A DNA stretch of 32,000 nt from Microcystis aeruginosa NIES-843 (GCF_000010625.1 NC_010296.1:4890001-4922000); one strand, 5' to 3'. Numbered from the stretch's first letter, positions 2,006 through 19,185 are shown. Numbers and translations: made by a program. Notes: generated by a model from the letters alone, not told the origin.

Positions 2006-3124
2006 GTGCGACGGGGAAGACATAAAATTTTTATCGGCATGGCCCCGGGGGTCGGGAAAACTTACAAAATGCTGGAGGAGGGGCATAGCCTCAGAAAGCA
2101 GGGAACCGACGTGGTGATCGGACTTCTCGAAACCCACGGCAGGAAAGAGACCGCCGAAAAAGCCGGGGGGTTGGAAATCGTACCGAGAAAAATCCTAGAG
2201 AAAGAGGGATTCACTCTCTCGGAAATGGATACGGAAGCGATTATCGCCCGCTCGCCGCAGCTGTGTCTGATCGATGAATTAGCCCACACGAACGCGCCTA
2301 GTTCGGAGCGAGAGAAACGCTTTCAGGACGTGGAGATAATTTTATCCCGGGGAATCGATGTTTACTCGACAGTGAATATCCAGCATATCGAGAGTTTAAA
2401 CGATCTGGTCGCCCGAATCACCGGGGTGGTGGTGCGGGAGCGAATACCCGATCGAATTTTGGAGGAAGCTGATGAAGTGATCGTGGTAGATGTTACCGCC
2501 GAAACCCTAGAGGAAAGATTATTAGCGGGAAAAATCTACGCTCCCGAAAAGATCGAACAATCTTTAAATAATTTCTTTCAACGGCGTAATTTAATCGCCC
2601 TCCGGGAACTGGCCTTGCGCGAAGTGGCCGATACGGTAGAAGAAGAAGCGAGTAATTCGACCAAATTCATCGGTCAATCCTGTCCCGTTCACGAACGGGT
2701 ATTAGTCTGTATTTCCACCTATCCCAACTCTTTACGATTATTACGTCGGGGAGCGCGGATAGCGGGGTATATGAACGCGGAATTTTTCGTGATTTTCGTT
2801 GATAACCCCGAGCGCTTTCTCACCAGAGAGGAGGCTTTACATATCGAAACCTGCGAACGTTTATGTCGGGAATTCGAGGGGAAATTCTTACGGGTTAAAA
2901 GCTATCAGGTGGCGGCAGCGATCGCCGAGGTGGCCGAGCGCGAACGGATCACCCAGATCGTGATCGGGGAGAGCCTTCAATCGCGCTGGAAGCATTTCAT
3001 CAAAGGTTCTTTCACCCAAAAACTCATGCGCCTGATCTGGCAGAAAAATATCGATCTTCACATCATCGCCACCGATCCAAAAGTACCAATTAAAGACGCG
3101 CGAGCCAAGGGGGTGAAAAGATAA
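2006..3124 (+). CDS. kdpD: Short KdpD-type protein (KdpD N-terminal sensor domain plus USP-like domain, no histidine-kinase part)
   Basis: ORF with a GTG start preceded by aaaggagacgagc. The N-terminus HKIFIGMAPGVGKTYKMLEEG...VVIGLLETHGR is the KdpD N-terminal P-loop-like domain. The C-terminal half (ERVLVCIS...QIVIGES) is USP-like. No TM or HisKA/HATPase region is present. Confidence 0.75.
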   Translation: MRRGRHKIFIGMAPGVGKTYKMLEEGHSLRKQGTDVVIGLLETHGRKETAEKAGGLEIVPRKILEKEGFTLSEMDTEAIIARSPQLCLIDELAHTNAPSSEREKRFQDVEIILSRGIDVYSTVNIQHIESLNDLVARITGVVVRERIPDRILEEADEVIVVDVTAETLEERLLAGKIYAPEKIEQSLNNFFQRRNLIALRELALREVADTVEEEASNSTKFIGQSCPVHERVLVCISTYPNSLRLLRRGARIAGYMNAEFFVIFVDNPERFLTREEALHIETCERLCREFEGKFLRVKSYQVAAAIAEVAERERITQIVIGESLQSRWKHFIKGSFTQKLMRLIWQKNIDLHIIATDPKVPIKDARAKGVKR

Positions 3125-3134
3125 CTACCTTTCT

Positions 3135-3191
3135 CCCACTTCCCCACTCCCACTTCCCCACTTCCCCACTTCCCCACTTCCCCCTTCCCCT
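3135..3191. repeat. Tandem CCCCACTT-type octamer array (C4 tracts on + strand)
   Basis: Reads cccacttccccactcccacttccccacttccccacttccccacttccccc directly. It begins 11 nt after the kdpD stop. Confidence 0.9.
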
Positions 3192-3279
3192 CTCAAATCG
3201 GCAACGCCTTGGCTTCTCTGGGATGATATTCTAGGAGTTAATCTTTATGCAAATCCGTTGTCACAGAGGGAGTTAACTC

Positions 3280-3387
3280 ATGCAAGTAAATAATCTCGGC
3301 TTTATCGCTAGTATCCTATTCGTCCTAGTACCCACCGTTTTCCTCTTGATTCTGTTTATCCAAACCAGACAGGAAACCGAGGGTTAA
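3280..3387 (+). CDS. psbM: Photosystem II reaction centre protein M
   Basis: A 35-codon ORF below the ORF-track cutoff. My translation is MQVNNLGFIASILFVLVPTVFLLILFIQTRQETEG, almost identical over the first ~27 aa to Synechocystis PsbM as I remember it. GAGGGAG lies upstream and an intrinsic terminator follows. Confidence 0.9.
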   Translation: MQVNNLGFIASILFVLVPTVFLLILFIQTRQETEG

Positions 3388-3509: not shown

Positions 3510-3727
3510 TAGGGTCTGCTGAAAAAGTTTGTTGGTGGGGGCAGGGTGTGGGGTGTGGGGTGTGGGGTGTAGGGTTTTACCGATTTTGAGGTAGTCAGTT
3601 ACCTAATTTTCAGGGAAAAAGTACCTGAATTTTACCCCCGCTCCCTCCAATGGTCGGCACTTTTTGAGGGAAAAAAAGTATAAAAGCCTTATCCAACAAG
3701 GTTTTTAGATTTATTCAGCAAGCCCTA
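3510..3727. mobile_element. MITE unit, TAGGGTYTGC-termini family (inverted copy of 30281-30497)
   Basis: The termini tagggtctgctgaaaaag and ttattcagcaagcccta are inverted repeats. The interior holds a GGGTGTG x4 array (3544-3574). The whole ~218 bp aligns by eye to the reverse complement of 30281-30497. Confidence 0.6.
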
Positions 3728-3729
3728 GT

Positions 3730-3803
3730 TAGGGTTTGCGGCAAAAAGTTTGTTGGTGGGGTTAGGAGTCAGTAGCCGGTCGTCAGTAGCCGGTCGTCGG
3801 GAG
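3730..3803. mobile_element. Partial second MITE unit of the same family (matches the reverse complement of the right part of 30017-30278)
   Basis: Sequence tagggtttgcggcaaaaagtttgttggtggggttaggagtc plus (agtagccggtcgtc)x2 parallels the reverse complement of 30190-30278. Similarity is lost after about 3803. Confidence 0.5.
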
Positions 3804-3889
3804 TTTCAGGCTTTGTTGCCCTCTCTTTTTTGTACCAACTTATGTACTATAAGAAGGATAATGCCAGGTTTTTGAGGGTCCCAATCCGA

Positions 3890-4560
3890 ATTTGCTAGAA
3901 TGGTAGTCATGTATATAGAAAAAGTTCCTAACCGTAATTCCCCCCCGCCGTTCTTCGACCTGATTCTTACCGAGAAGGAGATCAAGTCAAAAAAAGAACC
4001 CTGGCCAACCTCTCAAAATTACCCGATGATATTATCGACAATTTGAAACTGGCTCTCAAAGGGGCGTTACAATCGAGATAAAAAGAAAGGGAAAACTCAG
4101 ATAGTTTTTGGCCTACTATGTTAGGCTAAGGCTTGTCCGATAGCGGTAGAAGTCTTTGAAGGAAACACATCCGATAGTGCCACCTTAGCCAGACAAATTG
4201 AGAAAGTCAGAAAAGGTTGGGGGATTGAGAATGTGGTCTGGGTAAGCGATAGAGGAATTTTAACCAACGTAAAAGAAAATCAATGAATTAGTAAAACCGC
4301 TAGAAGGATTAGACTATATTACTTTCGGACTTTGTTGGAAGACCTGGGGACAATTTGCTTGAATACAGTAGAATGTACGATTAGAGAGGGAAGTTATCGT
4401 TTTGCTAAGATAACTCGACCGACTTCCCTACAACAATCATGCGTTAGATTTATTAGGGGTTTCCCTGATTTGTACCCAGTAACGGGCTGGCGGAAATTCT
4501 CTTAATCCCTCCTACAGCATAGGTTATGGCCTTTTGTCAAGGGGGAATTCCAGGTATCAG
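3890..4560 (+). mobile_element. Internally deleted IS4/IS1634-like element, copy A (non-autonomous, transposase in fragments)
   Basis: Encodes MYIEKVPNRNSPPAVL...KKRTLANLSKLPDDIIDNLKLALKG, then a stop. A DDE-region fragment follows (VEVFEGNTSDSATLARQIEKVRKGWGIENVVWVSDRGILTN), then a C-terminal fragment (LNTVECTIREGSYRFAKITRP). It is a near-duplicate of 9848-10702. The family call is from memory of that N-terminus. Confidence 0.7.
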
Positions 4561-4699
4561 CAATTCCAAATTTAAGGTTTCATGACGTAAAAATCCTTAT
4601 GACAAGAGGGTTGTACAATTCTTAACATTTGGATTGATCTCTGAAATGGCGCAAAATCGTTCCGAATTTATTTTTGCTGTCCAGGTATTCAGGGCAGAG

Positions 4700-4821
4700 G
4701 AAGGGGAGAAGATTTTGGGCGGTGTCTATCGGGTGCGGTCTGCGTAGCAGAGTGCTTGGCGATCGCTTTCGAGGACAAACCAACCCGATCCAAGAGGCAG
4801 TAGGTCGGGGAGGATGTCAAC
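4700..4821 (+). mobile_element. Orphan IS200/IS605 right-end relic (tnpB 3' fragment plus candidate omega-RNA 3' module)
   Basis: Ends in a hairpin (cccgatc...ggtcggg) followed by gaggatgtcaac. That 12-mer is identical to the last 12 nt of the right end of the element at 25504-25540. The upstream attttgggcggtgtc...gcggtctgcgtag resembles the NIL-G-encoding tnpB 3' ends. No tnpB ORF remains. Confidence 0.4.
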
Positions 4822-4869
4822 GGAATAGGATCATTAAAATAGGTTTAAGGAAATAGTTGAACCAATAGG

Positions 4870-5640
4870 CTAATCTTGGTGCGTCCAAGAGCGATGAGCC
4901 AGACGCAAACCCCAATCGAGCAGATAACCAATCGCGCCAATAACGAGAATCACCGCCATCAACTCTGAATAAGCGAGTCGATCGCGTGTATCGAGAATAT
5001 AATAACCCAAACCCGCACTAACCCCCAGCATTTCCGCCGGTACAAGAACGATCCAGATAATACCTATAGCCAAACGGAAACCAGTTAGGAGATGGGAGAG
5101 GATCGCAGGCAGAATAATCTGGAAAACCGTTTCCCCTCGCGTAGCACAGAGACTGTGGGCTAAAGTCAACCAAGAGCGATCAACCGCATTAACCCCAGCA
5201 GCCGTATTGAGAAGGATCGGCCAGATAGCCGCCACCGTCAGCAAAAAATACACAGGTAGATCACCAATTCCCAAAACCATCACCGCTAAAGGCATCCAAG
5301 AAAGGGGCGAGATCATGCGTAGAAATTGAAATAGGGCCGACAAAGCCGATTCAAGGGAGCGATACAACCCGATTAATACCCCCAACGGCACACCGATGGC
5401 ACTAGCGAGAACCAAGCCCACAATAACCCGGCGGCAACTGGTGAGGATATGGGGCATAATCTCCCCCCCAACAAAAAGACGTAATAAAGCGACAAAAGAT
5501 CGCTCAGGGGAAAAATCATTTAAAATCGGGTTTGAGTGCCATAGAGGACTGGTAAATAGCCACCAGAGCAATAATCCCAAACCGATACCCCATAAGGGTA
5601 GTAAAGCTCTTGGCGGGGAGGTCAAAGATTGTGACTTCAT
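4870..5640 (-). CDS. ABC transporter permease, NitT/TauT family (NrtB/SsuC/TauC-like)
   Basis: A 256-aa polytopic membrane ORF, last gene of the operon. Its architecture is BPD-type, e.g. ALFQFLRMISPLSWMPLAVMVLGIG. It starts 12 nt after the binding-protein gene. Confidence 0.85.
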   Translation of the reverse strand: MKSQSLTSPPRALLPLWGIGLGLLLWWLFTSPLWHSNPILNDFSPERSFVALLRLFVGGEIMPHILTSCRRVIVGLVLASAIGVPLGVLIGLYRSLESALSALFQFLRMISPLSWMPLAVMVLGIGDLPVYFLLTVAAIWPILLNTAAGVNAVDRSWLTLAHSLCATRGETVFQIILPAILSHLLTGFRLAIGIIWIVLVPAEMLGVSAGLGYYILDTRDRLAYSELMAVILVIGAIGYLLDWGLRLAHRSWTHQD

Positions 5641-5652
5641 AGGTTCGGACCT

Positions 5653-6861
5653 TTAAAATTTGATCGTCTCGATGCGGGAGAGATTATTCGGTAAGCCGAA
5701 AGCTTTCGGTCCGCCCACCTGTTGCAAGGCATTACGGACAAAAGAGTCATCCACGAGATCCCGCGCCACCTGTCGGGGTTGCAGTTTTTGGAGAAAATCC
5801 GTATTTCCTTCCACCTGAGTGGTTTTGAGCAAGCGTACCAGTTCCTCCGTATAGGAAGGGAAAGGATAGGGCTGGAAATCGATCCGGTTGACCTGCCAAG
5901 CTGGATTCTCGATCGCCCCGTCTTTTTTATAGAAATTGCGATCATAGTAAGTAAGCGCCCGTTGCAATACCGGCAGCGGGTGAGGCGTATATTTTCCACC
6001 ATCTTTAGAGAGAATCCGGGCCACTTCCGAGCGATTGCTCCGGGACCAGAGTTGGGCTTTAACGAGGGCGTTTACCACCCTCTGCGTCCATTGTTTCCGT
6101 TGCCTAATATCCTCCTCGTGAACAAAGACAACGCAACAGGCGTGATTCTTCCAGACATCGCCGGTGAAACGGAGAACCCTACCGGTTTTGAGATTTTCCG
6201 CCGCCGCGTTGAAAGGTTCAGCAACGATATAACCACCGATGCTCTTATTGGCGAGGGCTGATACCATATCCGGGGGCGGGAGAACCACTAGATTAACCTC
6301 GTTAGAAGCGATCGGCGCGTCCTTGGGTTTGCGAACTATTTTCAGCCCGTTACGTTGTAAGAGTTGTTGCAAGACCAAATTATGAATCGAATACCAGAAA
6401 GGAACCGCGATCGTTTTACCTCCCAATTCCCTGGGATTTTCAATATCGGGAAGGACGGTGAGGGCTGAACCATTGGTATGGTTCCAAGCGACGATTTTAG
6501 CGGGGAAATTGCGCCCGTAACGAATCCAGATCGAGGTGGGAAAAAGAACGTGAATAACGTTCACCTGCCGAGCGAGAAAGGCCTCAACAATCTGCGCCCA
6601 AGAGCGGAATAGGCGCGGTTGTTCGGCAGTTAAACCTTCCGCTTGATAAAGTTTTCGCGAGTGGGCTACCAATAGGGGGGCGGCATCCGTAATCGGTAGA
6701 TAACCGATTTTCACAGGCTGATCGTTGGCATTGGCGTGAACAGGGAGATTCCAATTATCGGCGGCGATCGCTGCTCCGAAGGAACTGGTAAACAGTGCCG
6801 AAAGTTTCAGGAAATCTCGACGGCTCATGCCGCAACAAGCACAATTATGGTGTAGGTTCAT
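5653..6861 (-). CDS. ABC transporter substrate-binding protein, NrtA/CmpA/SsuA-like, Tat signal
   Basis: Twin-arginine signal MSRRDFLKLSALFTSSFGAAIAA; the real start may be the internal ATG at 6828. The motif PVKIGYLPITDAAPLLVAH is typical of NrtA/CmpA-type binding proteins. Confidence 0.85.
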   Translation of the reverse strand: MNLHHNCACCGMSRRDFLKLSALFTSSFGAAIAADNWNLPVHANANDQPVKIGYLPITDAAPLLVAHSRKLYQAEGLTAEQPRLFRSWAQIVEAFLARQVNVIHVLFPTSIWIRYGRNFPAKIVAWNHTNGSALTVLPDIENPRELGGKTIAVPFWYSIHNLVLQQLLQRNGLKIVRKPKDAPIASNEVNLVVLPPPDMVSALANKSIGGYIVAEPFNAAAENLKTGRVLRFTGDVWKNHACCVVFVHEEDIRQRKQWTQRVVNALVKAQLWSRSNRSEVARILSKDGGKYTPHPLPVLQRALTYYDRNFYKKDGAIENPAWQVNRIDFQPYPFPSYTEELVRLLKTTQVEGNTDFLQKLQPRQVARDLVDDSFVRNALQQVGGPKAFGLPNNLSRIETIKF

Positions 6862-6865
6862 GGAT

Positions 6866-7648
6866 TTACAGTGTCATGACAAGGGCTAATTCTTGAAAAA
6901 TTGACCGGCGTAGATCACTCAAAAGCTTGGCTGACTCGAAACGGGGTTTCGGCATCGAGATGGTCCATTCTCGGCGGATGCCCACCGGATGACGGCCCAT
7001 GAGAAGAACTCGATCGGCCACTAATAGGGCCTCGTCGATGTCGTGGGTAACGAGGAGAACCGTGCTGTTATAGAGAGCTATGACTTCTAGGAGGAGTTTT
7101 TGCATCTCGAAACGGGTGATCGCGTCGAGGGCGCTAAACGGCTCATCCAGGAGCAGGAGAGAGGGGCGGCGGGCGAGGACGCGGGCTAGAGAAACTCTCT
7201 GAGCCATACCGCCGGATAGTTGATGAGGATAAGCACGCTCGAAGCCATCTAGTTTGACGCTTTTAACGGCGATGTGAACCCTTTCCCGTAATTGCTGATG
7301 ATCGAGGCGGGGCATCCGCTTTAATTTCAAACCAAAAGCCACGTTTTGCCAAACGGTTAACCAAGGTAAAAGGGCGGGGGATTGAAAGACGATCGAGCTG
7401 CGGATGTCTGGGGCTTGTAGGGGTCGTGAGTGCAATTGTATTTCTCCGCCATCGGCACTTTGCAAACCAGCGGCGGTAGCAAGGAGGGTAGATTTACCGC
7501 AACCACTAGCCCCGAGCAAACAAACCACCTCACCGGAGCGCACCTGTAGGTTAATATCCTCAAAAACGGTACGGTAGCCATGGCGGGTTTTATAGCGTTT
7601 ATGGAGATTTTTGAGGGTGAGGACGGGGTAATCAGTGGCGATACTCAT
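6866..7648 (-). CDS. ABC transporter ATP-binding protein, NitT/TauT family (NrtD/SsuB/TauB-like)
   Basis: Walker A GASGCGKST, signature LSGGMAQR, Walker B LLLLDEPFSALD. Its start overlaps the upstream gene's stop by 4 nt (ATGA). Confidence 0.9.
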   Translation of the reverse strand: MSIATDYPVLTLKNLHKRYKTRHGYRTVFEDINLQVRSGEVVCLLGASGCGKSTLLATAAGLQSADGGEIQLHSRPLQAPDIRSSIVFQSPALLPWLTVWQNVAFGLKLKRMPRLDHQQLRERVHIAVKSVKLDGFERAYPHQLSGGMAQRVSLARVLARRPSLLLLDEPFSALDAITRFEMQKLLLEVIALYNSTVLLVTHDIDEALLVADRVLLMGRHPVGIRREWTISMPKPRFESAKLLSDLRRSIFQELALVMTL

Positions 7649-8760
7649 TCCCTCACCCCCGCTCGATCGAGTTCGCCAGTGAAAATTTTATCGCTAGAGG
7701 ACTGACGTTGTAACTCTCTTTCCAGTTGAATCAGGCTCGGAGTTAACACCGGTAAAAAGGCGACCTCCCGCAGCCGTCGCGCCGTGTCGCTATTACGGAA
7801 ATAGCCTTTTCCTCCCTTAATTTCCGCTTCTAACCCTACGGATTCCACCGCTAACCGGGTAATGTCCACTCTGAGGGTGAATAGTTCGCGTGTTCGTGCG
7901 AGATCGAAGCTTTCTAGGGTGCTGAATTGCACGATTGTCTTTTCTAGACGAGTCAGACGCTCCCGGGCGAAGAAATAACGATCGCTGGCTACCGCTGCCT
8001 TTCCCCCTAAATTTTTCTCCGTCTCCCCAAGGGATTTACGCGTAATGCCAAGGGCCAGTCCGCATTGTAACAGCAAGAAACAGGGGCGGACTGAGGGTAA
8101 AAATTTTGCTGCTTCCAAGCTGATAATCCAGTCGTGAGATAACTGAACTCGATCGAATTCAAGGGTACTGGTGCGGGAAGCTTGTAAACCCAATAATTGT
8201 AGGTCTTCACCCCGTTTTAACCCCTCTGCGAAGGAGGGAAGGGCGAGGATAAGAGTTTGTCCAGATCTAGTTTGAGCGGCAACGGCCACTATAAATTCTC
8301 CCTTAGAGTCGAGATTAGAGGCCCAGGGCAGGAAGCCATTAACAGTGACGTTTTCTCCCTCGATCTTTGCTTGTAAACGCAGCTCCTCGATACCGCCGAG
8401 GTACTTCATCGCGTTAGAGAGTCCTGTCGCTCCGGCTATCTCTCCCTTGAGAACAGCCGGTAGAATTTTGTTTTGTAGGTAAGTGTTATTACTGGCCGCC
8501 AGATATTGAATGAAGACGCGCTGACACCAGAAAACAAAACCGGTGGTGAGGCAGCATTGGGACACAGAGGAGATCGCCTCTACTGCCTGTAATAAGGAGC
8601 CACCCCGACCCCCTAAGCTTTCAGGTATAGCATAGCCGAACCAGCCCGATTCTCCTAGCTTGGTTAGGGCCAAACCGACGTTGAGATTAGCTGTACCGTT
8701 GTTGAGGTCAGTGGCTCTTTCTTCTAGAAAAGAACTGATTTCGGAGCCTCGAGCGAGCAT
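7645..8760 (-). CDS. Acyl-CoA dehydrogenase-fold flavoprotein (possibly a DszC/SfnB/MsuC-type monooxygenase; function open)
   Basis: A 371-aa ORF with ACAD-like three-domain layout: an N-terminal alpha region, a middle region GEIAGATGLSN...VNGFLPWASN, and a C-terminal helical region ARRLREVAFLPVLTPS. It is translationally coupled to the ABC ATPase. Confidence 0.7.
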   Translation of the reverse strand: MLARGSEISSFLEERATDLNNGTANLNVGLALTKLGESGWFGYAIPESLGGRGGSLLQAVEAISSVSQCCLTTGFVFWCQRVFIQYLAASNNTYLQNKILPAVLKGEIAGATGLSNAMKYLGGIEELRLQAKIEGENVTVNGFLPWASNLDSKGEFIVAVAAQTRSGQTLILALPSFAEGLKRGEDLQLLGLQASRTSTLEFDRVQLSHDWIISLEAAKFLPSVRPCFLLLQCGLALGITRKSLGETEKNLGGKAAVASDRYFFARERLTRLEKTIVQFSTLESFDLARTRELFTLRVDITRLAVESVGLEAEIKGGKGYFRNSDTARRLREVAFLPVLTPSLIQLERELQRQSSSDKIFTGELDRAGVRE

Positions 8761-8772
8761 AATTGTTCTCTC

Positions 8773-9303
8773 CTAGGGGTGAATATTTTCAATCGAGGTC
8801 AAACTATCTATAGGTGCGCCGACCACTTCTCTGGCTCTTTTCACCGCCGCTTCATCGGGACTATCGTAGAAACAGAGACATTTACTCAAGTCTTCGCAAA
8901 TATATGTACGCTCGAAACTGACTTCAGGCACTTGAGCATAAAGGGGGGTTTTCTCCGCTTTTCGTTGCAGGTAAGTTTCCATCGTTAGCCCCGGAGGTAA
9001 ATTCCACTGTACTAGATAGTTGGCTTTGTCTTTGCGCTCTCGCACAGTGGCTAAGTCCTGCCCAATCAAGCGCATTTCCTTGATTAGTTGCCAACTTAGC
9101 CCAGCGTTTTCTAGTACTTGTTCGAGGGAGGCGCGATCGATCGCTTTGATAATCAGGAATAACCGCCCCTCTGTTTCACCGATTAGGGCTTCGATTAACT
9201 CTCCCTGCGATTTTGATGCGAGTGTGGCAATGCGCTCCAATATCTCGCTCACCTCTTCTTTTGTCCTTTCTTGTCGATCATCCTCTACTAGATATAGAGT
9301 CAT
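8773..9303 (-). CDS. Tandem DUF4242 (SCO4226-like, ferredoxin-fold) protein
   Basis: Both halves fit the DUF4242 pattern as I recall it. Half 1: MTLYLVE...EGRLFLIIKAIDRASLEQVLENAGL. Half 2: YLVQWNLPPGLTMETYL...ERTYICEDLSKCLCFYDSPDEAAVKRAREVVGAPIDSL. It is the first gene of the operon. Confidence 0.6.
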   Translation of the reverse strand: MTLYLVEDDRQERTKEEVSEILERIATLASKSQGELIEALIGETEGRLFLIIKAIDRASLEQVLENAGLSWQLIKEMRLIGQDLATVRERKDKANYLVQWNLPPGLTMETYLQRKAEKTPLYAQVPEVSFERTYICEDLSKCLCFYDSPDEAAVKRAREVVGAPIDSLTSIENIHP

Positions 9304-9847
9304 AATTCATCTAAAATACATTTACAATACATTTGAGTTTACTTTCTTTGAGAAAAAAAAGCAATATTTTCAAGAGCCTGAAAACGAGGTGACACGGGAG
9401 TAGATGGTTCAAGACCGTTTCGCTCAAGTCCAGGCGAGAACCCTTGGCTTGGGTGATATGCGTGACCTTCTGAGGCAGCTGAGACTCACAGTCTGTGTAA
9501 ACTTCGACTGAGTTCTTGTATCTCTGAACTTCCTCCATACATATCTACTACAAGAGCCGAAAACCCTTATCCATCAATGGATACACCCATTAACTTCTCT
9601 TGATGTACCCATGGAATTTGTAATACTTCTGGTTCTTCGGTTTTTGTTATGCAATGGAGGGGGGTTATAAGGGATGAAACCCTTATATATAAAGACATTG
9701 CTTCGATTTTTGCCAATTGTTTTCGATCTAGAACGAGCTAATCAATTAAGTCTCTTGCCAGATAAGGATTTAGTCGATTTATGCCACCCGATCAAACCAT
9801 ACCAAGTAACGAAGAACCATACTTCTTAATAGACCAGAACTCTCTCC

Positions 9848-10702
9848 ATTTGCTAGAATGGTAGTCATGTATATAGAAAAAGTTCCTAACCGTAATTCCC
9901 CCCCGCCGTTCTTCGACCTGATTCTTACCGAGAAGGAGATCAAGTCAAAAAAAGAACCCTGGCCAACCTCTCAAAATTACCCGATGATATTATCGACAAT
10001 TTGAAACTGGCTCTCCAAGGGGCGTTACAATCGAGATAAAAAGAAAGGGAAAACTCAGATAGTTTTTGGCCTACTATGTTAGGCTAAGGCTTGTCCGATA
10101 GCGGTAGAAGTCTTTGAAGGAAACACATCCGATAGTGCCACCTTAGCCAGACAAATTGAGAAAGTCAGAAAAGGTTGGGGGATTGAGAATGTGGTCTGGG
10201 TAAGCGATAGAGGAATTTTAACCAACGTAAAAGAAAATCAATGAATTAGTAAAACCGCTAGAAGGATTAGACTATATTAGGACTTACGCATTGACAGGAT
10301 TGACCAAATATGAGGTATGGGTTTCAGGCATTTTAACGTGATTTTTTGATGACTTTTGAGCGACCGCTATCGTTGGGAAGTTAATCGCCAAAAGTCTGAA
10401 ACGACCGATTTTCATTCATGCACATCATGGTGAATTTGTACAGTGCGTAAGTCCTATATATTACTTTCGGACTTTATTGGAGGACTTGGGGACGATTTCC
10501 TTGAACACAGTAGAATGTACGATTAGAGAGGGAAGTTATCGTTTTGCTAAGATAACTCGACCCACTGAACTGCAACAATCATGCGTTAGATTGATTGGGG
10601 GTTTCCTTAATTTATACCCAGTAACGGGGGAGCAGAAATTCTCTCAATTCCTCCTACAGCACAGGTTATGGCCTTTTGTCAACGGGGAAGTCCAGTTATA
10701 GC
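9848..10702 (+). mobile_element. Internally deleted IS4/IS1634-like element, copy B (same derivative as copy A, carrying a nested MITE)
   Basis: 9848-10277 matches 3890-4319 with 1 mismatch in 430 nt by manual alignment. After the 179-bp insert, 10462-10702 matches 4320-4560 at only about 87 percent. Same orientation as copy A. Confidence 0.7.
10278..10456. mobile_element. 179-bp MITE nested in IS copy B
   Basis: The terminal inverted repeats are TAGGACTTACGCAtTG and CAgTGCGTAAGTCCTA. A 5-bp TATAT is duplicated at 10273-10277 and 10457-10461. Copy A has the uninterrupted site gacTATATtactttcgg at 4312-4328. Confidence 0.8.
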
Positions 10703-11233
10703 GGCTAAACGGGCCAGATAGAAGCTAGTAATAGTTTTAGCATCGATCGATTCTCCCCGTGCGATCGCCGATTCCATTTCCTCAAAACTCATCAAAACCA
10801 CTTCCAGATCTTCATCGACATCTTGAGCGGGGGGCAAGCTTAATTTTTCCAGATCCTGGGCTAGAAAAGCATAGATGTATTCATCGGAATAACCTGGTGC
10901 CAGGGCAAATTTACCCAAAGATTGCCAATTGTGCGCCCGATAGCCCGCTTCTTCCTCTAATTCTCGTTTTACCGTCGTAGCGGGGTCTTCTCCTTCATCG
11001 ATCGTTCCGGCGGGAAATTCCAGAATTCGAGCTTGCAAACTAAATCGATACTGACGTACTAAAACCAATTGACCTTCCTTGGTGATTGGAACTGCTAAAG
11101 CGCCACCCGGATGACGGACACATTCCCATTCTCCCTCGACACCGTTAGGTAAACGCAGTTTCGAGACTTCAAATTGAAAGACGCGACCTTGATAAAAAAG
11201 ACGTTGTTGGAGAAATTGAGGCGGTTCAGACAT
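10679..11233 (-). CDS. NUDIX hydrolase (ADP-ribose pyrophosphatase-like)
   Basis: Nudix box GTIDEGEDPATTVKRELEEEAGY. The last ~8 codons (AITGLPR, stop) lie inside the right end of IS copy B. Confidence 0.85.
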   Translation of the reverse strand: MSEPPQFLQQRLFYQGRVFQFEVSKLRLPNGVEGEWECVRHPGGALAVPITKEGQLVLVRQYRFSLQARILEFPAGTIDEGEDPATTVKRELEEEAGYRAHNWQSLGKFALAPGYSDEYIYAFLAQDLEKLSLPPAQDVDEDLEVVLMSFEEMESAIARGESIDAKTITSFYLARLAAITGLPR

Positions 11234-11394
11234 AGAAAATTTGCAACTAGGACTTTAAGAATTAATATCAACAAATGTTGCTTTTGTCACCGGTGTTAGG
11301 AAGCGGGTAGAATTATCGTCTAACGGCCAAGGAGAGATTCAGGTTATAATGGGAAATGCTGTCTTTACAGGTTAAATCTTTTTCGAGAAACCCC

Positions 11395-11697
11395 ATGGCA
11401 AAAAAATCGATGGTAGAACGCGAGAAAAAACGCGCTCGTCTCAGACAAAAATACGAAGCTAAACGGACGGAACTAAAAGAACAATTCCGTACTGCCGAAG
11501 ATTTTGAAGAAAAACTGGCAATTCACCAAAAATTACAGGAATTACCCCGCAATAGCGCCCCCAGTCGTCACCGCAACCGTTGTTTAACGACCGGCAGACC
11601 GAGAGGATACTATCGCGATTTTGGTTTATCCCGCAACGTTTTACGGGAATGGGCCCACCAAGGTCTTTTACCCGGTGTGGTCAAGTCTAGCTGGTAG
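11395..11697 (+). CDS. rpsN: 30S ribosomal protein S14
   Basis: [24 protein letters not shown]...[41 protein letters not shown] is the canonical long-form S14. The start is the ATG at 11395, inside ORF 11356-11697. Confidence 0.95.
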
Positions 11698-11727
11698 TCA
11701 GAAACAATATCTAGGGAAAATACCGTG

Positions 11728-11765
11728 ATAGAGGCGTGGTTTTTGCGTCTCTATTGCTGTTTTTA
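11728..11765 (+). terminator. Probable rpsN terminator
   Basis: Sequence ATAGAGGCGtggtttttGCGTCTCTATtgctgttttt. A 9-bp stem (one G-U pair) is followed by a T-rich tail. Confidence 0.55.
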
Positions 11766-11873
11766 TACTAAATCCGTTGAGTATAGTTTACATATCAGAC
11801 AGGCAAAAGGCAAAGGGGAGAATAAATAATCAGTTTTTAATAACTGGATTTAGTATGAGGCAATTTTAGCGAT

Positions 11874-11902
11874 AAAAAAACCCTCGATCGAGCGATCGAG
11901 AG
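11874..11902 (-). terminator. Probable pnp terminator
   Basis: The minus strand reads ctctcgatcgctcgatcgagggttttttt. A GC-rich palindromic stem is followed by T7, about 25 nt after the pnp stop. Confidence 0.6.
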
Positions 11903-11925
11903 TTAACCATGAACAAAAAATTCAC

Positions 11926-14079
11926 CTAGACTACAGTAGCAGCCTTACGGGCAGCGGCGGCCTCATCGGGATGAATACCGAGACGGGTAAGATTGAGACG
12001 ACCTTTACTATCGATCTCCCGTACCTTGACTAACACCTCATCCCCGACGGCCACTTCATCTTCGACCTTACCGACGCGTCCCTCGGCCAATTGGGAAATA
12101 TGGATCATTCCCTCTTTCCCCGGCAAAACTTCCACAAAAGCACCGATTTGGATAATGCGAGTCACGCGACCGAGATAAACCTCACCCTCATTGAGTTTGC
12201 GGGTCATATTGTAAATCAGTCGTTTAGCTTTTTCGGCCTGTTCCCCATCGGTGGAGGAAATGGTGACAGTACCATCGTCATCGATATCGATTTTCGTGCC
12301 GGTCTGTTCAGTAATCCCTTTAACCGTCTTACCACCTGGCCCGATGACTAACCCGATCAGGTCCGGATCGATCTTGATCGTCAATAACCGGGGTGCGTGG
12401 GGAGATAATTCCGTGCGCGGTTTTTCTAGGGTCGCTAACATCTTCTCGAGGATATGTTTGCGGGCCGGTAAAGCTTGTTCGATCGCCTTGGCCACCACTT
12501 CCATGCTTAAACCGGGGATTTTCATATCCATCTGGAGAGCGGTAATGCCAGAATCAGTGCCAGCCACCTTAAAGTCCATATCTCCCAGAAAATCCTCGAT
12601 ACCCTGGATATCGGTCAAAATCCGCACTTCTTCCCCTTCTTTAATTAAACCCATGGCCGCACCGCTAACGGGTTTTTTCAGGGGAACACCGGCATCCATC
12701 AGCGCCAGGGTAGAACCGCACACGGAACCCATGGAGGTGGAACCATTAGAAGAGAGGACTTCCGACACCACCCGCAACACATAGGGAAATTCCTCCTGTG
12801 GGGGAAGGACAGGTACGATCGCCCTTTCCGCTAAAGCACCGTGACCGATTTCTCGACGGCCGGGAGAACGCATGGGACGGGTTTCACCGACGGAAAAGGG
12901 TGGGAAATTGTAGTGATGAAGATAGCGTTTTTCGTCTTCGGGATGGAGATCGTCGCCCAAATCCTGAGCATCACCGGGGGTGCCAAGAGTGGCGATCGAA
13001 AGCACTTGGGTTAAACCGCGATTAAACAAACCGCTACCGTGAACCCGACGGGGTAAAACTCCTACCCGGCAAGAAATCGGCCGTACTTCGTCCAGTTGGC
13101 GACCATCAACCCGCACCCCATCCTCAATAATTTGGGCGCGCATCAGTTTTTTGGTCAGATCCTTAAAGAGATTACCGATTAACTTGGGTTCTTCCAGGGT
13201 TGGAGCTTTTAAGGTATCTTCGTCGGGGAGAGCGGTGATAGTTTCCTTGATCCGATTTTCGATCGCCTCTAATTTCTCATCCCGTTCGGTTTTGCTGAGG
13301 GTAAACTGAGAGAGAATCTGTTTAATTTCCTCTTTAGCTTGTTCTCTCAGGAAATTCTGCACGGTTTCGTTTACTGCCGGCGCTTCTCGGGTCACGAGGG
13401 GAATACCCAACTGATCGATCAATTCCCGTTGAGCGGTGATCAGGTCGCGGACCGCTTCATAACCAAAATCGATCGCCTCAATAATATCCCGTTCTGGTAA
13501 CTGATTAGCTCCCGCTTCGATCATCACCACCCCTTCGGGACTACCGGCCACCACTAGATCCAATTCTCCGTTATGGATTTCCTTGTAGGTGGGATTGATG
13601 ATAAATTCATCCCCCAACAAACCGACGCGCACCGCTGCCATCGGTCCTTGGAAGGGAATACCTGCCAACAAAACCGCCACGGAAGCCCCAGTAACGGCCA
13701 AAACATCCGGGGGGACTTCCTCATCCATTGAGAGGGTCGTAGCGACTACTTGGATATCATCCCGCATCCAATTGGGGAATAGGGGACGCAGGGGGCGATC
13801 GATCAAACGACCGGTCAGAATTGCTTTTTCCGGGGGACGACCTTCACGACGCAAAAATCCTCCCGGGATGCGCCCGGCGGCGTATAATCTTTCTTCGTAA
13901 TCAACGGTCAAGGGCAGGAAATCTACTCCTTCTCTGGCTTTGGCTGTGGTTGCTGTCACTAAAACCGCCGTTTCTCCCGATTGGATCAGAACACTACCGC
14001 CAGCTTGGGGGGCTAAAAGCCCTATTTTTAGTCGAATATCCCTGCCATCAAAGGATATTGACTTGTCAAACTCTTCCAT
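11926..14079 (-). CDS. pnp: Polyribonucleotide nucleotidyltransferase (PNPase)
   Basis: A 717-aa ORF with two RNase PH domains, a KH domain ([12 protein letters not shown]) and an S1 domain ([33 protein letters not shown]). Confidence 0.97.
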
Positions 14080-14165
14080 GTAAAGTTATATTCCTTTCTT
14101 TCACTTTTCTCTGTGCTGTGGCAATCCTAGCATTTTTTGTAGCCCTTTCCAGCAGGTTTAGTATT

Positions 14166-14203
14166 CAGTGATCAGTGATCAGTGATCAGTTATCAGTGAT
14201 CAG
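14166..14203. repeat. CAGTGAT/CAGTTAT heptamer array (reverse complement of the CTGATMA family)
   Basis: Reads cagtgat cagtgat cagtgat cagttat cagtgat cag. It lies 87 nt upstream of the pnp start. Confidence 0.9.
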
Positions 14204-14262
14204 AGTTGAGTTTTCAGTTCGCTGATTACTCTTTACCGTTTACTGATCACAGCAAAAAAGCT

Positions 14263-14393
14263 CCCCACTTCCCCACTTCCCCAATCCCCCACTTCCCCAC
14301 TTCCCCAATCCCCCACTTCCCCAATCCCCCACTTCCCCAATCCCCCACTTCCCCAATCCCCCACTTCCCACTTCCCACTTCCCTGCTCCCTGC
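14263..14393. repeat. C4-tract array mixing CCCCACTT and CCCCAAT(C) units
   Basis: About 130 bp of ccccacttccccacttccccaatcccccactt... in the pnp/prfA divergent intergenic region. It generates the artefactual ORF 14206-14538. Confidence 0.9.
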
Positions 14394-14706
14394 TTTTAAA
14401 CAGGATTTAACATTACTTGCTCAAACCGGCCAAAAAATGATAGTTTCAGATATAGGAATAATCTGGTTAAGAAAAAAATGTCTTCCCTTGCCGCTTGCTG
14501 GCCCAAAAATATTTCTAAGTATTAGCAAAACTGACTGACTGTCAGCAGTTGGGCGGGATTTTTCCAGGCTCGAAGAACCCCAAACCAAGAAAATTAAGAC
14601 AATTAAAAGGATTGCGTCTCTATTATCTGTTAGACGCTTCTAATCCAGTGAATTTGCGGGTTATATTCCAATTAACCCCGTTTAACCCTATTTGTGGCTA
14701 TCGATT

Positions 14707-15807
14707 ATGGCTGAAAGTTATTTACTAGACAAACTGCAATCTGTAGAACAGACCTACAAAGAATTAACCCGTCGTCTAGCGGATCCCGATGTCACCGGTA
14801 ATCCGGGTGAATTGCATCGTCTGGCCAAATCCCGCGCTTCCCTAGAGGAAACGGTCAACACTTACGAAATTTGGCAAAAAAGTCAAGAGGATTTAATCGG
14901 TGCGAAACAAATCTTCAAAGAATCCGCCAGCGATCCCGAATTAAGGGAAATGGCCGCCCTAGAAGTGGCAGAATTAGAGGAAAAAATCGCCACTTTGGAA
15001 GACCAATTAACAATTCTGCTGCTGCCCCGGGATCCCCTCGATGAAAAGAATATCATGCTAGAAATTCGCGCTGGGACCGGAGGTGATGAGGCCAGTATTT
15101 GGGCGGGGGATTTAGTTCGCTTGTACTCAAAATATGCCGAAACTCAAAACTGGAAAGTTAGCCTTTTGAGTGAATCTCAGGCGGATATGGGAGGATTTAA
15201 AGAGGCAATTTTAGAGATTAAAGGCGATAACGTCTATAGTAAGCTGAAATTTGAGGCGGGAGTCCATCGGGTGCAGCGGGTTCCTCTGACGGAAGCCAGT
15301 GGTCGCGTCCACACTTCTACCGCTACCGTGGCGATTATGCCAGAAGTGGACGATGTGGAAGTGCATATCGATCCCAAGGATATTGAGTTAACCACGGCTA
15401 GATCCGGGGGTGCAGGCGGTCAAAATGTCAATAAAGTGGAAACTGCCGTCGATTTAATCCATAAACCCACGGGAATCCGAGTTTTTTGTACCGAGGAGCG
15501 ATCGCAATTGCAAAACCGGGAACGGGCCATGCAGATTCTCCGGGCGAAACTGTACGATATGAAGTTACAGGAACAACAGGAAGCGGTCAGTTCCATGCGA
15601 CGCTCTCAGGTGGGAACTGGTTCGCGTTCGGAAAAAATTCGCACCTATAACTATAAGGATAATCGTCTCACCGATCATCGCTTAAATCAGAATTTTTCCC
15701 TCGATCGCATTTTAGACGGCGATATCGAAGAGGTGATCCAATCCTGTATCGCCAAGGATCAACAGGAAAAACTGGCAGAATTAGCCGCTGCCCAAGAGAC
15801 AGCTTAA
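14707..15807 (+). CDS. prfA: Peptide chain release factor 1
   Basis: GGQ motif [18 protein letters not shown]1-type PxT tripeptide in [17 protein letters not shown]. The start is the ATG at 14707 ([10 protein letters not shown]), within ORF 14692-15807. Confidence 0.95.
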
Positions 15808-15931
15808 TCAGGACAAGGGAGACTCCGAGACTCCTGGATTATTTTTATTTATGCTCCCCCCGCTCTCTTCTCCCTTCTCCCCAACCCGCAACCGTAGCTT
15901 GACGGTGGGAGTGTGTCAATTGCTATCTCAA

Positions 15932-15989
15932 GGTCGCGAGAGGACTCCCGTTAAACCGCGTAGCGGTTAACGGGAGATGAATCGCGACC
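15932..15989 (+). other. Left-end compound hairpin of E1
   Basis: Sequence GGTCGCGA gagga CTCCCGTTAAACCGC gta GCGGTTAACGGGAG atgaa TCGCGACC. Two nested stems are read directly from the sequence. Confidence 0.7.
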
Positions 15990-15998
15990 AGAATGAAA

Positions 15999-16429
15999 CT
16001 AACGCGGTAGGGTTTCCACTTTCGGGGAGTTTTGGTTCTCGACGTATTTTTTTAGTTGTTCGACAGTAACACCTCCACAACTAGCCACGAAATAACCTCC
16101 CGTCCAAAAATAAGGTTTATTGTCGAAATACTTTGCCGCCAAATCCAGAAATTCCTTTCTAATTAATGGGACTACTAACTGTTTTAAGGTTAGCGATTAA
16201 TTTGGATAAAGCGATGTCAGGTTTGTCATCGATAATCCGGTGAACGTAATCCGATTCACCGTTGAAATCAAGCAACACGCTTTCCCATTTTGTGACGTTG
16301 ACACAAAAATTTCTTGAAGTCGGGCTAAGATTTCATTGTTAATAGCAATGGTCGGTATTTGATGACGAATACGACCTGAGCGGTAAGTCTATAAACAGAG
16401 CAAAATTCATGATTGTAATCAGTTGACAT
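15999..16429 (-). pseudogene. tnpA: IS200/IS605 Y1 transposase TnpA, frameshifted
   Basis: My translation needs three frames. Frame 1: MSTDYNHEFCSVYRLTAQVVFVIKYR. Frame 2: IAINNEILARLQEIFVSTSQKWESVLLDFNGESDYVHRIIDDKPDIALSKLIANLKTVSS. Frame 3: LIRKEFLDLAAKYFDNKPYFWTGGYFVASCGGVTVEQLKKYVENQ. The 431-nt span is not a multiple of 3. The expected HUH motif reads YVH. Confidence 0.8.
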
Positions 16430-16451
16430 ATTAGGCGGTAAGTGTTATAAT
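16423..16451 (+). promoter_or_regulatory. Consensus sigma70-type promoter for tnpB (E1)
   Basis: TTGACA (16423-16428), a 17-nt spacer, then TATAAT (16446-16451). The -35 box overlaps the tnpA start codon on the other strand. Confidence 0.6.
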
Positions 16452-16455
16452 CTAG

Positions 16456-17694
16456 TTGTACATCACGAAACGAACGACAGTGATAACGCTTACCTACCAG
16501 TACAAACTAAAGGTAAACAGACAACAGGAACGGGAGATCATCCACATTCTTGATGTTGCCAAAAGCGTTTACAATTACGCGCTGGCGGAGCGAAAAGATT
16601 GGTTGAACTCTCGAAAGTGTCTTGCGGATCGTTGTTCGTTAGTTTCCGAGTACATAATTCCTGCGGATGAACCCTATCCTAATTACTTCGTTCAAGCTAA
16701 AAATCTAACGGAAGCTAAAAAAGTTTACCCGATATTAAAGACGGTTAACGCTCAAGTTTTACAGCAAGTCTTAAAAACTTTAGATAAGGCGTTTAACCAG
16801 ATGAAGTCGAAAGGCTTCGGCTTTCCTAGATTCAAAAAAAAGATGCGAAGTTTTATTTTTCCTGCGCTGTCAAAAAACTTTCTAGGGGATGGATGTTTGA
16901 ATTTTCCACAATTAGGAAAAATTAGCATACGGCCATCTAGAGAATACCCGTCTGGGTTCGAGCCTAAACAAGCTCGAATTATCCAAAAAGCGTCGGGATT
17001 TTACGTTTCGGTTTCCTTCCAATCTACGGAATTAGTTCCCGATATGACAGTAGGGAAGACCTGTTTAGGAATTGACGCGGGAATTGAAAGTTTTGTCGCT
17101 ACTTCACGGGAAGATTTAATCAAAGCCCCTCGATTTTTGTTGAAAGTACAGAGTAAGCTTAAATTGCTACAAAGACGCTTGAAACATCAAGTCAAAGGCT
17201 CGAACAATTGGTTAAAACTCCAAGAGAAGATAGCAAGATTACACGAGAAAGTGTCTAATACTCGTAGAGATTGGCATTTTAAGTTAGCTCATTACCTTGG
17301 CGATTTTGCTGATAATATCTTCGTTGAGGATATTAACTTCGTTTCCTGGTCTAGAGGAATCGTTAGAAAACAATCTCTAGATTCGGGTATCGGTAGTTTT
17401 ATTAACGAGATACTACCGTTTGTTGTTTGGAAACGGGGAAAATATTATCTTAAAGTCGATAAAAACGGAACTTCCCAGGATTGTCCGAATTGTGGCGCGA
17501 TTACCGGCAAAAAGTCCTTATCGGAAAGAGTCCACCGGTGTGATTCTTGCGGTAACATCGAACCAAGAGACACGGCATCAGCGAAGGTAATCGAGAACCG
17601 AGGAAAAAATGCGGTCGGACTGACCGTGTTAGAAAACGCTCGCGGAGGCGATCTGACGGGGATCGACCGGGTTAAACCAGGTCGATCTAGTTAA
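16456..17694 (+). CDS. tnpB: TnpB (IS605 OrfB) RNA-guided nuclease family protein, E1
   Basis: RuvC contexts CLGIDAGIES, IFVEDINF and PRDTASAKVI. Zinc finger CPNCG...CDSCG. The likely start is GTG 16480 (VITLTYQYKLKV), given the promoter position. Confidence 0.9.
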   Translation: MYITKRTTVITLTYQYKLKVNRQQEREIIHILDVAKSVYNYALAERKDWLNSRKCLADRCSLVSEYIIPADEPYPNYFVQAKNLTEAKKVYPILKTVNAQVLQQVLKTLDKAFNQMKSKGFGFPRFKKKMRSFIFPALSKNFLGDGCLNFPQLGKISIRPSREYPSGFEPKQARIIQKASGFYVSVSFQSTELVPDMTVGKTCLGIDAGIESFVATSREDLIKAPRFLLKVQSKLKLLQRRLKHQVKGSNNWLKLQEKIARLHEKVSNTRRDWHFKLAHYLGDFADNIFVEDINFVSWSRGIVRKQSLDSGIGSFINEILPFVVWKRGKYYLKVDKNGTSQDCPNCGAITGKKSLSERVHRCDSCGNIEPRDTASAKVIENRGKNAVGLTVLENARGGDLTGIDRVKPGRSS

Positions 17695-17756
17695 AAGCCT
17701 AAGAACCGAGAATCCCCCGCTACACCGGGCGAGCGGTTAGCGGGGGAGAGTCAAAA
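17560..17756 (+). ncRNA. Candidate omega-RNA (reRNA) scaffold of E1
   Basis: By analogy to known TnpB systems, the scaffold would overlap the tnpB 3' end and the right end. It ends in gaatCCCCCGCTAcaccgggcgagcggtTAGCGGGGGagagtcaaaa. The 5' limit is a guess. Confidence 0.4.
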
Positions 17757-17790
17757 TCGAGTGTCGAATTTGAGTAGGAGACGGGATAAA

Positions 17791-19032
17791 ATGGCCGATT
17801 GGCAGGAAATAGAGGGGGGGATCACGGCCCCAAAAGGATTTAAATCCGCAGGGATGGCCGCGGGGCTAAAACCGTCCGGTTTGCCCGATTTAGCCCTAAT
17901 TGTCTCGGAAACAGAAGCGATCGCCGCCGGAGTCTTTACCACCAGTCAAGTGCGGGCCGCTTGCGTCGATTATTGCCGTCAACGCCTACAAACTAAAGCC
18001 AGCGCCAGGGCGATTTTGTGTAATGCCGGCCAAGCAAACGCCGCCACGGGGGCAGCTGGATGGCAAGATGCCCTCGATAGTGCCGCCGCCTTGAGCCAAG
18101 TTTTAGGGATTCCCGCCGATGCAATTTTGCTGGCTTCTACAGGAGTCATCGGGCAACGGATTCGCATGGATGCGTTAACCGCCGCTTTACCGACCTTAGT
18201 GGGTTTATTGTCGGAAAATGGTGGCGAAAGCACGGCCCGGGCGATTATGACCACGGATCTAGTCCCCAAATCGATCGCCTTGCAAACCACTATCGAGGGT
18301 CGTCCGGTCACAATTGGGGGAATTGCCAAGGGATCGGGGATGATTCACCCGAATATGGCGACGATGCTCTCCTTTATTACCTGTGATGCCGCAGTATCGA
18401 CGGTTCTCTGGCAAAATATGTTAAGTCGGGCGGCCAATAAAAGTTTTAATCAGATCACGGTGGATGGGGACACCAGTACCAATGACAGTCTGATCGCCTT
18501 GGCTAACGGTCAATCGCGCACCACAGCCATCACAGAAATGGGCCGGGATGCCCAAAAGTTAGAGGCCATGTTAACGGAAGTTTGTCAATACTTGGCGAAA
18601 GCGATCGCCCGGGATGGCGAAGGGGCCACCTGTTTAATGGAAGTGCGGGTTTCGGGGGCGGCCGATGATCAGTCCGCTCGTCAGATTGCTCGCACCATTG
18701 CCGGTTCTTCCTTGGTAAAATCGGCGGTTTTCGGTCGAGATCCTAACTGGGGACGAATTGCGGCGGCCGCGGGCCGGGCCGGGATAGTCTTCCATCAAGA
18801 GGATCTGCAAATTAAGTTAGGCGACTTCGTGATGATGGAAAATGGCCAACCTCTGGCGTTCGATCGAGCTAGTGCCAGTAATTACCTGAAAGCGGCAGCA
18901 AGCGGGGCTTATTTACGAGAAGATACCGTTTTAATGTCTATCTGTATCGGTAACGGTTCGGGAACAGGTACGGCCTGGGGTTGCGATCTTAGTTACGATT
19001 ACGTCAAAATTAACGCCGAGTACACTACCTAA
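17791..19032 (+). CDS. argJ: Bifunctional ornithine acetyltransferase / N-acetylglutamate synthase
   Basis: MADWQEIEGGITAPKGFKSAG at the N-terminus, and the autoprocessing site KGSGMIHPNMATMLSFITCDA. The start is ATG 17791 (taggagacggg upstream), within ORF 17761-19032. Confidence 0.93.
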   Translation: MADWQEIEGGITAPKGFKSAGMAAGLKPSGLPDLALIVSETEAIAAGVFTTSQVRAACVDYCRQRLQTKASARAILCNAGQANAATGAAGWQDALDSAAALSQVLGIPADAILLASTGVIGQRIRMDALTAALPTLVGLLSENGGESTARAIMTTDLVPKSIALQTTIEGRPVTIGGIAKGSGMIHPNMATMLSFITCDAAVSTVLWQNMLSRAANKSFNQITVDGDTSTNDSLIALANGQSRTTAITEMGRDAQKLEAMLTEVCQYLAKAIARDGEGATCLMEVRVSGAADDQSARQIARTIAGSSLVKSAVFGRDPNWGRIAAAAGRAGIVFHQEDLQIKLGDFVMMENGQPLAFDRASASNYLKAAASGAYLREDTVLMSICIGNGSGTGTAWGCDLSYDYVKINAEYTT

Positions 19033-19185
19033 AGCGATCGATCGGTTCTGTAAACAGGCTCTCTTGTCTTTGCTGGATTGTATCGCAACAGCTTGACCAA
19101 AGGTTGACGGCAGCATCTAGTCTATACTGGCAATCTCGACGATCAATCCTGTTGATCACACACCATCCAAGAGAGCCGATTACCC

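Follow-up and report, generated by a model that had tools for sequence, protein, structure and literature searches.

The window analysed here is the whole stretch of 32,000 nucleotides (nt) from Microcystis aeruginosa NIES-843 (GCF_000010625.1, NC_010296.1:4890001-4922000), in which positions 3890 to 10702 hold a minus-strand operon of five genes between two defective copies of an insertion sequence (IS) of the IS1634 family, here called IS-L and IS-R, with psbM on the left and a gene for a NUDIX hydrolase on the right (Table 1). Microcystis is a major bloom-forming cyanobacterium, the strains of which differ in nutrient-scavenging genes. The initial annotation of this region, which saw in it a composite-transposon-like accessory module acquired as a unit, was partly confirmed in what it observed and partly supported in how it interpreted the arrangement. 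Comparison with other Microcystis loci suggests that the site is probably a rearrangement hot spot, in which the dead IS copies are a substrate for recombination and not parts of an active composite transposon.

Table 1. Features of the psbM/NUDIX region, in positions of the window (aa, amino acids; ABC, ATP-binding cassette; ACAD, acyl-CoA dehydrogenase; MITE, miniature inverted-repeat transposable element; TIR, terminal inverted repeat; TSD, target-site duplication).
Feature	Position	Strand	Remarks
psbM	3280..3387	+	35 aa; left core neighbour; Pfam PsbM on orthologous genes
Dispersed repeat + 86 bp	3513..3889	.	Copy of ~290-bp family (3513-3803, GGGGTGT heptamer runs) replacing first 135 bp of IS-L
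IS-L	3890..4561	+	5'-truncated, doubly deleted IS1634-family derivative; left TIR absent, right TIR degenerate
Spacer	4562..4852	.	291 bp; confined to strains that have the operon here; small palindromic repeat at ~4565-4640
Operon segment	4853..9472	-	4.62 kb, from 17 bp past the permease stop to ~170 bp upstream of the first gene
ABC permease, Ssu/Tau/Nrt type	4870..5640	-	PF00528; NCBIfam SaoP/NtrB/TauC/SsuC matches below equivalog cut-offs
Substrate-binding protein	5653..6861	-	NMT1_2, SsuA family-like
ABC ATPase	6866..7648	-	
Acyl-CoA-dehydrogenase-fold flavoenzyme	7645..8760	-	Distant from solved ACADs; weak SfnB-family match
SCO4226-like / DUF4242 protein	8773..9303	-	First operon gene; pANL homologue annotated DUF4242
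IS-R	9517..10702	+	Doubly deleted IS1634-family derivative; both ends present, left TIR degenerate, two MITEs inside
190-bp MITE	9630..9819	.	TIR TGGTTCTTCG; TSD TACTTC (9624-9629, 9820-9825); IS-R left-end region
179-bp MITE	10278..10456	.	TIR TAGGACTTACGCA (13+ bp); TSD TATAT (10273-10277, 10457-10461); second deletion junction of IS-R
NUDIX hydrolase	10679..11233	-	Last 7 codons + stop (10679-10702) from IS-R right end
Inverted segment	10703..19181	.	8.5 kb: NUDIX, rpsN, pnp, release-factor gene, TnpB insertion, argJ

Regarding the repeats, IS-L and IS-R have identical orientation and are 100% identical over 300 nt (3890-4189 against 9848-10147), a match that extends to about 432 nt with one mismatch (99.8%); their 3' parts (4315-4557 and 10457-10699) are 89% identical, i.e., 10.8% diverged. 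The length gap between them corresponds to a 184-bp insertion in IS-R that represents the 179-bp MITE, which sits exactly at the second deletion junction and is the sole reason why the 855 bp of IS-R first recognized (9848-10702) exceed IS-L. The 671-bp unit has 75% identity, in three blocks, to an element on plasmid Cy782202 of Gloeothece PCC 7822, the 587-aa product of which (WP_013335032.1) carries the annotation IS1634 family transposase and reaches 335 bits on the corresponding NCBIfam model, NF033559. The window copies matched this protein by tblastn with 57-78% aa identity across three blocks and the stitched translation of IS-L scored 75.5 bits on the model (E 4e-21), bearing out the assignment to the IS1634 family. 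Both copies retain aa 1-53, 192-280 and 532-587 of the transposase (reference numbering), with aa 54-191 and 281-531 deleted, and since they align to the reference in the same three blocks they share two common internal deletions, as had been claimed of these two direct copies. The remaining open reading frame (ORF) is not intact, being broken by frameshifts and an in-frame stop, and from this coding content both copies are judged to be non-autonomous IS1634-family derivatives, again in agreement with the initial annotation.

The left end of the element was located in the compared loci L003 (GCA_000312265.1) and L081 (GCA_027533345.1), 135 bp further upstream and starting TATTACTGGACTTCCCC; it matches the reverse complement of the right end, TATAACTGGACTTCCCC, at 17/18 bases, and the TIR-bearing outer ends of the element are TATWACTGGACTTCCCC ends. 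Of the boundaries first proposed, the left ones need correction: the left copy is truncated at 3890, and the right copy does not start at 9848 but extends back to a left TIR at ~9517, the element core with both ends present being 806 bp. In the window, L002 and L004, IS-L has lost the outer 135 bp including the TIR, and both outer ends are intact only in L003. No TSD was found at IS-L, at IS-R or around the pair: the outer flanks differ (left copy in L003, GCGGATCT / AATTCCAA; right copy, GAGTTCT / GGCTAAAC), the right flank being an inversion junction, and the empty NUDIX site (CGTTTAGCC / CTTAATTAA) shows no duplication of bases at the opposite end of the IS. A full-length relative with the same TIR was not found in the ~1.5 Mb of Microcystis loci examined. 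Seemingly "short" IS copies in L003 were considered as a different derivative and rejected, their shortness being due to 100-N scaffold gaps. On the contig L012 (JGI Ga0183339_1002197), which has 99.85% identity to the window over the operon and carries a 312-bp deletion within the DUF4242 gene, the operon-upstream IS copy (L012:1-160) extends beyond the second deletion junction to cover transposase aa 281-329; this may reflect either a longer family member in the population that shares the first deletion or a scaffold that crossed into another copy.

The two elements nested in IS-R are short and non-coding, with TIRs, a TSD and empty sites in relatives, as expected of MITEs. The site of the 179-bp MITE is empty in IS-L, L007 and L081; that of the 190-bp MITE is empty in L002 and L081, most related strains being without it, and a relative with 85.6% identity was found at L082:5532-5717. 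What had been described as a 545-bp region upstream of the operon in fact consists of ~170 bp of the operon's own upstream DNA, followed by a 44-bp spacer (9473-9516) and by 331 bp of the IS left end with this second MITE. On the other side of the operon, many short-read contigs end at 4652, within the 291-bp spacer, and an exact-protein look-up of the 60-aa ORF in this spacer returned no record. An orphan right-end relic of a TnpB/IS605 element had been proposed here; this was rejected, as neither tblastn nor blastn linked 4562-4869 to any of the window's three TnpB elements, no TnpB element in the other loci examined matched it and Rfam gave nothing at E<=1. Left of IS-L, the flank downstream of psbM is conserved to ~3512 in all strains, with the alignment ending at 3511/3512 in L080, L081 and L003, and in L003 and L081 it is followed directly, at 3512/3517, by the left end of the IS. 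The ~290-bp repeat that stands in its place in the window has an internal TAGTTAGGGTTTGCGGCAAAAAGTTTGTTGGTGG motif, a second, inverted copy at 30205-30497, relatives in L021, L023-L026 and L003, and further copies at numerous Microcystis loci. The points at which it abuts or replaces the left end of the IS differ between the window and L079.

Between the IS copies the minus-strand operon of five genes lies at 4870-9303, as initially described, its ABC ATPase, binding protein and permease being of the Ssu/Tau type. None of its proteins reached the equivalog cut-offs for SsuABC, TauABC or SfnB (SsuA_fam, 89.7 vs 163.5 bits; SfnB, 37.8 vs 430.9 bits), and in searches of solved structures with the cargo proteins the flavoenzyme retrieved distant ACADs only and the DUF4242 protein no structure. 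Promoter and terminator scans at the operon ends gave nothing above shuffled expectation. The whole set of five, in unchanged order (DUF4242, ACAD-family, ABC ATPase, binding protein, permease), was found at two other places. In Pannus brasiliensis the flavoenzyme has 67% identity, and sbp (sulfate-binding protein), a cysA-like gene, a gene for an SsuD-like luciferase and further Ssu-type transporters lie close by. On the Synechococcus elongatus plasmid pANL the set adjoins cysK and a gamma-glutamyltransferase gene in the region of sulfur metabolism (PMC9239245), the sulfur-regulated one with the srp genes. At the DNA level, pANL matches 35% of the Microcystis segment, with 68% identity. The nearest relatives of the operon are found in cyanobacteria, and their similarity largely follows phylogeny (Pannus, 67% aa identity; other cyanobacteria, 50-60%). 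Because the five-gene set stands among sulfur genes in Pannus and on pANL, the operon may be an old cyanobacterial sulfur-acquisition unit with a putative role in organosulfur scavenging; unlike its counterparts, which have cysK, gamma-glutamyltransferase and sulfate or sulfonate transport genes beside them, the Microcystis operon is alone, away from sulfur genes.

Exact-protein look-ups of two operon proteins revealed two contexts of the operon only, and no plasmid copy in Microcystis. At the second, IS-free context, seen at eight looked-up loci (e.g., BBPA01, presumably NIES-44), the operon has a Ser/Thr kinase gene on one side and orf117/pyrG on the other, and no IS lies close by. What the window and the kinase/pyrG locus have in common is exactly 4853-9472, with 97.6-98.0% identity, a segment that contains no IS DNA and ends 291 bp short of IS-L and 44 bp short of IS-R. 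Among 22 kinase loci in a scan of metagenomes and metagenome-assembled genomes (MAGs), 12 or 13 are filled, one of them with an internally deleted operon, and nine are empty; the end points of the empty-site indel lie within 5-15 bp of the ends of the shared segment. The internally deleted copy (L107:2598-6132, VYKR01000065.1) is missing the gene for the binding protein together with parts of those for the permease and the ATPase, and thus in some strains the operon decays in place. Intergenic arrays of CCCCACTT and CCCCACA octamer and heptamer repeats occur in the window at 3123-3206, 14246-14385 and 23754-23967, and the array motif (GGGGAAGT)n is found directly at the permease-side operon junction at the kinase/pyrG locus of other strains.

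In a neighbor-joining tree of the operon (4433 ungapped columns, 100 bootstraps, rooted with Pannus), the present-locus operons are monophyletic in 100/100 bootstraps and nested inside those of the kinase/pyrG locus, likewise in 100/100. This makes the kinase/pyrG site the ancestral one, the operon having reached its present site by one relocation within the genus. The operon occurs at the present locus in one clade only, in which the order kdpD, psbM, IS-L, operon, IS-R, NUDIX, rpsN, pnp recurs with 98.7-99.4% identity in the complete chromosome AP019314 (M. viridis NIES-102), GCA_003389435.1, GCA_000312265.1 and several draft or metagenome contigs. By exact-protein look-up, genes of the window recur in NCBI Microcystis assemblies, AP019314 among them, and in numerous bloom metagenomes.

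Regarding the alleles of this locus, the linkage of psbM to the NUDIX gene through a single solo IS copy, which the initial annotation had suggested looking for, was found in the two assemblies L079 and L081 (GCA_007095915.1 and GCA_027533345.1), where the NUDIX protein has 184 aa and the operon is absent. The outer junctions of L081 are those of L003; L079 shares the NUDIX junction and is 5'-truncated against the dispersed repeat. The solo copies represent a third allele, 4% different from the 3' part of IS-R and 9% from that of IS-L, and the flanking genes of these strains are only ~95% identical to the window. Exchange between IS copies is evident in L007, whose right copy is L-type to position 475 and R-type thereafter, with the MITE lost, a clean conversion tract. 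The third-codon-position divergence between the two operon locations is 4-5%, and the 10.8% divergence of the IS 3' parts is about twice that value; IS-L and IS-R are therefore older paralogues and not duplicates made at the site. The claim of shared deletions stands, and a recent duplication of one derivative in place does not. The near identity of their 5' 432 bp probably results from homogenization by gene conversion. A further change at this junction is seen in the metagenome contig L009, where an IS607-type element with resolvase and TnpB fragments (L009:6019-7909) lies inside the 3' part of the right IS copy, adjoining NUDIX, and is further evidence for an insertion hot spot here.

The same junction is one end of an inversion. 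In all 11 Microcystis species representatives (11/11) the 3' end of the NUDIX gene is joined directly, at base-pair level, to the equivalent of window position ~19176, and in other strains psbM adjoins argJ; the lineage of the window therefore carries an inversion of 10703-19181. One inversion breakpoint is the exact right end of IS-R and the other (19181/19182) has no IS and at most 1 bp of duplication. The IS also supplies the new end of the NUDIX gene, the ancestral C-terminus ...RLALN* (179 aa) having become ...RLAAITGLPR* (184 aa), with LN replaced by AITGLPR. This 184-aa form is widespread, the exact protein being indexed in 72 blocks of the collection. Within the inverted segment, between the release-factor gene and argJ, a low-GC (guanine plus cytosine, ~40%) insertion at 15875-17754 with a TnpB (OrfB_IS605) gene at 16456-17694 is absent from L021 and L023.

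Taken together, these results favor an account in which a non-autonomous derivative with an 806-bp core sits between the psbM flank and the inverted NUDIX-to-argJ block, and in which the operon, ancestrally between the Ser/Thr kinase gene and orf117/pyrG, was moved once to the psbM/NUDIX site in one clade. The IS copies would since have acted as passive stretches of homology, with gene conversion keeping the 5' 432 bp identical up to the heterology of the MITE, and a single reciprocal crossover, presumably by RecA-type recombination, could interconvert the IS-operon-IS arrangement with a solo-IS allele, as found in other strains, and a circle made up of the operon and a single IS copy. Several points weigh against this account. 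The solo copies are not a clean left/right recombinant and are therefore no proof of a crossover; the outer TIRs are well conserved and the inner ones degenerate, a pattern also expected of a once-functional composite transposon; no assembly was found in both sets, with an empty kinase/pyrG site and the operon at psbM/NUDIX; the origin of the 291-bp and 44-bp spacers was not identified among the compared loci; and the movement of a naked 4.62-kb segment between loci is left unexplained, despite identical end points at both loci and the empty site.

In a further reading, the 4.62-kb operon would be a discrete cassette with fixed ends and no recombinase of its own, moved by a specific trans-acting mechanism, possibly as a circle carried on one copy of the IS1634 derivative or by an unrecognized end-recognizing system. 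The segment ends have no terminal inverted repeats or hairpins of the kind that a transposon-like or IS200/IS605-type cargo element would show (fold z-scores -0.8 to +0.4) and the segment holds no recombinase gene. Such a cassette appears distinctly unlikely; if real, it would be a way to shuffle nutrient-acquisition operons within the species complex. A true composite transposon, the outer ends of which would be recognized in trans by a full-length relative so that a remobilizable 6.9-kb unit entered the psbM/NUDIX junction, would account for direct IS copies bracketing a cargo and for the pairing of outer ends with a 17/18 matching TIR in L003 and L081 with degenerate inner ends, and members of the IS1634 family are abundant in Microcystis and have been active there in recent times (PMC2779907, PMC11448079). 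Neither the outer junctions nor either single copy has a TSD, however, IS-L of the window has lost 135 bp at its outer end, TIR included, the two copies differ by 10.8% in their 3' parts, and the loci examined hold no full-length relative with this TIR. Moreover, the bracket that had been seen as a mobile unit was never found at a second locus, the operon being IS-free elsewhere and the shared DNA stopping 291 and 44 bp short of the IS copies. As the copies also have no transposase and unrelated spacers part them from the operon, the data speak against an active composite transposon, and an origin as one seems very unlikely. Somewhat less improbable, though still doubtful, is gain by way of a translocatable unit, the reverse direction of the deletion reading: an ancestral solo IS would have received, by homologous recombination, a circle of a diverged IS and the operon with its 291-bp and 44-bp spacers, which would create two hybrid copies. 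The solo copy of L081 is L-type at the far left and R-type at the right end with both TIRs good, and the operon-facing parts (the 3' part of IS-L and the left end of IS-R) are the diverged and degenerate ones; the present-locus operon clade is derived, and its strains are tight (98.7-99.4%), the solo-IS strains resembling unrelated lineages at ~95% in the flanking genes. Deletion in the opposite direction predicts the same sequence pattern, however, inter-strain recombination blurs arguments from lineage, and no donor locus or circle with an IS beside the operon was seen.

An origin as a foreign genomic island, gained by horizontal transfer and recognizable by raised G+C, was suggested by the composition of the operon (50.5% GC) against that of the whole window (45.7%) and of the glycosyltransferase-like gene with which it was first compared (36.6%). 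The three 60-nt counts on which the initial contrast was based are exact, but the comparator gene is atypical and the core lies at ~50%: the kdpD-like gene has 50.2% GC, pnp 51.7% and argJ 53.8%, and the flanking core genes combined have 49.7% GC and 49.9% at third codon positions (GC3), against a GC3 of 51.9% in the operon; the TnpB genes have ~40% GC. In codon usage, operon and core are 0.099 apart, close to the distance of 0.086 that separates the core from the right-side genes. The operon is thus not compositionally foreign and is indistinguishable from neighboring core genes, the compositional half of what the initial annotation had named as speaking against acquisition. Its nearest homologues, with the same gene order, are in Pannus and other cyanobacteria and the present-locus copy nests within Microcystis diversity; on GC, GC3, codon usage, homologue taxonomy and phylogeny the foreign island was rejected as extremely improbable. 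Of the proposal that the operon was acquired as a unit, its presence or absence and its relocation within the genus remain, and a distinct GC content and codon usage do not.

Regarding known systems, NIES-843 was reported to carry the IS1634-family elements ISMae31 (2168 bp, full-length, 41 copies), ISMae32 (896 bp) and ISMae33 (653 bp), together with MITEs of 179-187 bp, including ones of 179 and 182 bp (MaeMITEh and MaeMITEc), and such elements were put forward as drivers of genome plasticity (Kaneko et al., 2007; PMC2779907). In PCC 7806, IS1634 elements moved during 26 years of culture, with new insertions in delta-mcyB (PMC11448079). Compared by listed length and family, the derivative with its 806-bp core shares with ISMae32 and ISMae33 the family (NF033559), the genus and the size class of transposase-less derivatives; the lengths of MaeMITEh and MaeMITEc are close to those of the two nested MITEs, a coincidence of length that serves as a lead only. 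Similarly to compound and IS26-type pseudo-compound transposons, direct IS copies here bracket a cargo and a solo-IS allele has the same outer junctions, and as with translocatable units a reciprocal recombination would release or integrate a circle of one IS and the cargo. Unlike in those systems neither copy has a functional transposase, there is no TSD and this strain has lost one of the outer ends; unlike IS26, the element belongs to the IS1634 family (IS4-related) and not to IS6, unrelated spacers part the cargo from the IS ends and the unit was seen at no second site. The locus is thus a well-resolved example of a known phenomenon and no new kind of mobile element. As such it illustrates at base-pair resolution how IS debris reshapes a chromosome, with a native, putative sulfur operon relocated and presence/absence alleles at two sites, and the same debris at an inversion breakpoint where it rewrites the end of a neighboring gene. 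Because the operon is native and not foreign, the locus is useful for strain typing and for reading "accessory" calls in pangenomes.

Regarding the remainder of the window, tRNA and Rfam scans of its whole length gave no matches. Two more TnpB genes are located at 25548-26735 and 26991-28214, and an ORF at 28371-29957 contains 15-nt periodic repeats (family D5, 29679-29868), consistent with a pentapeptide-repeat protein.

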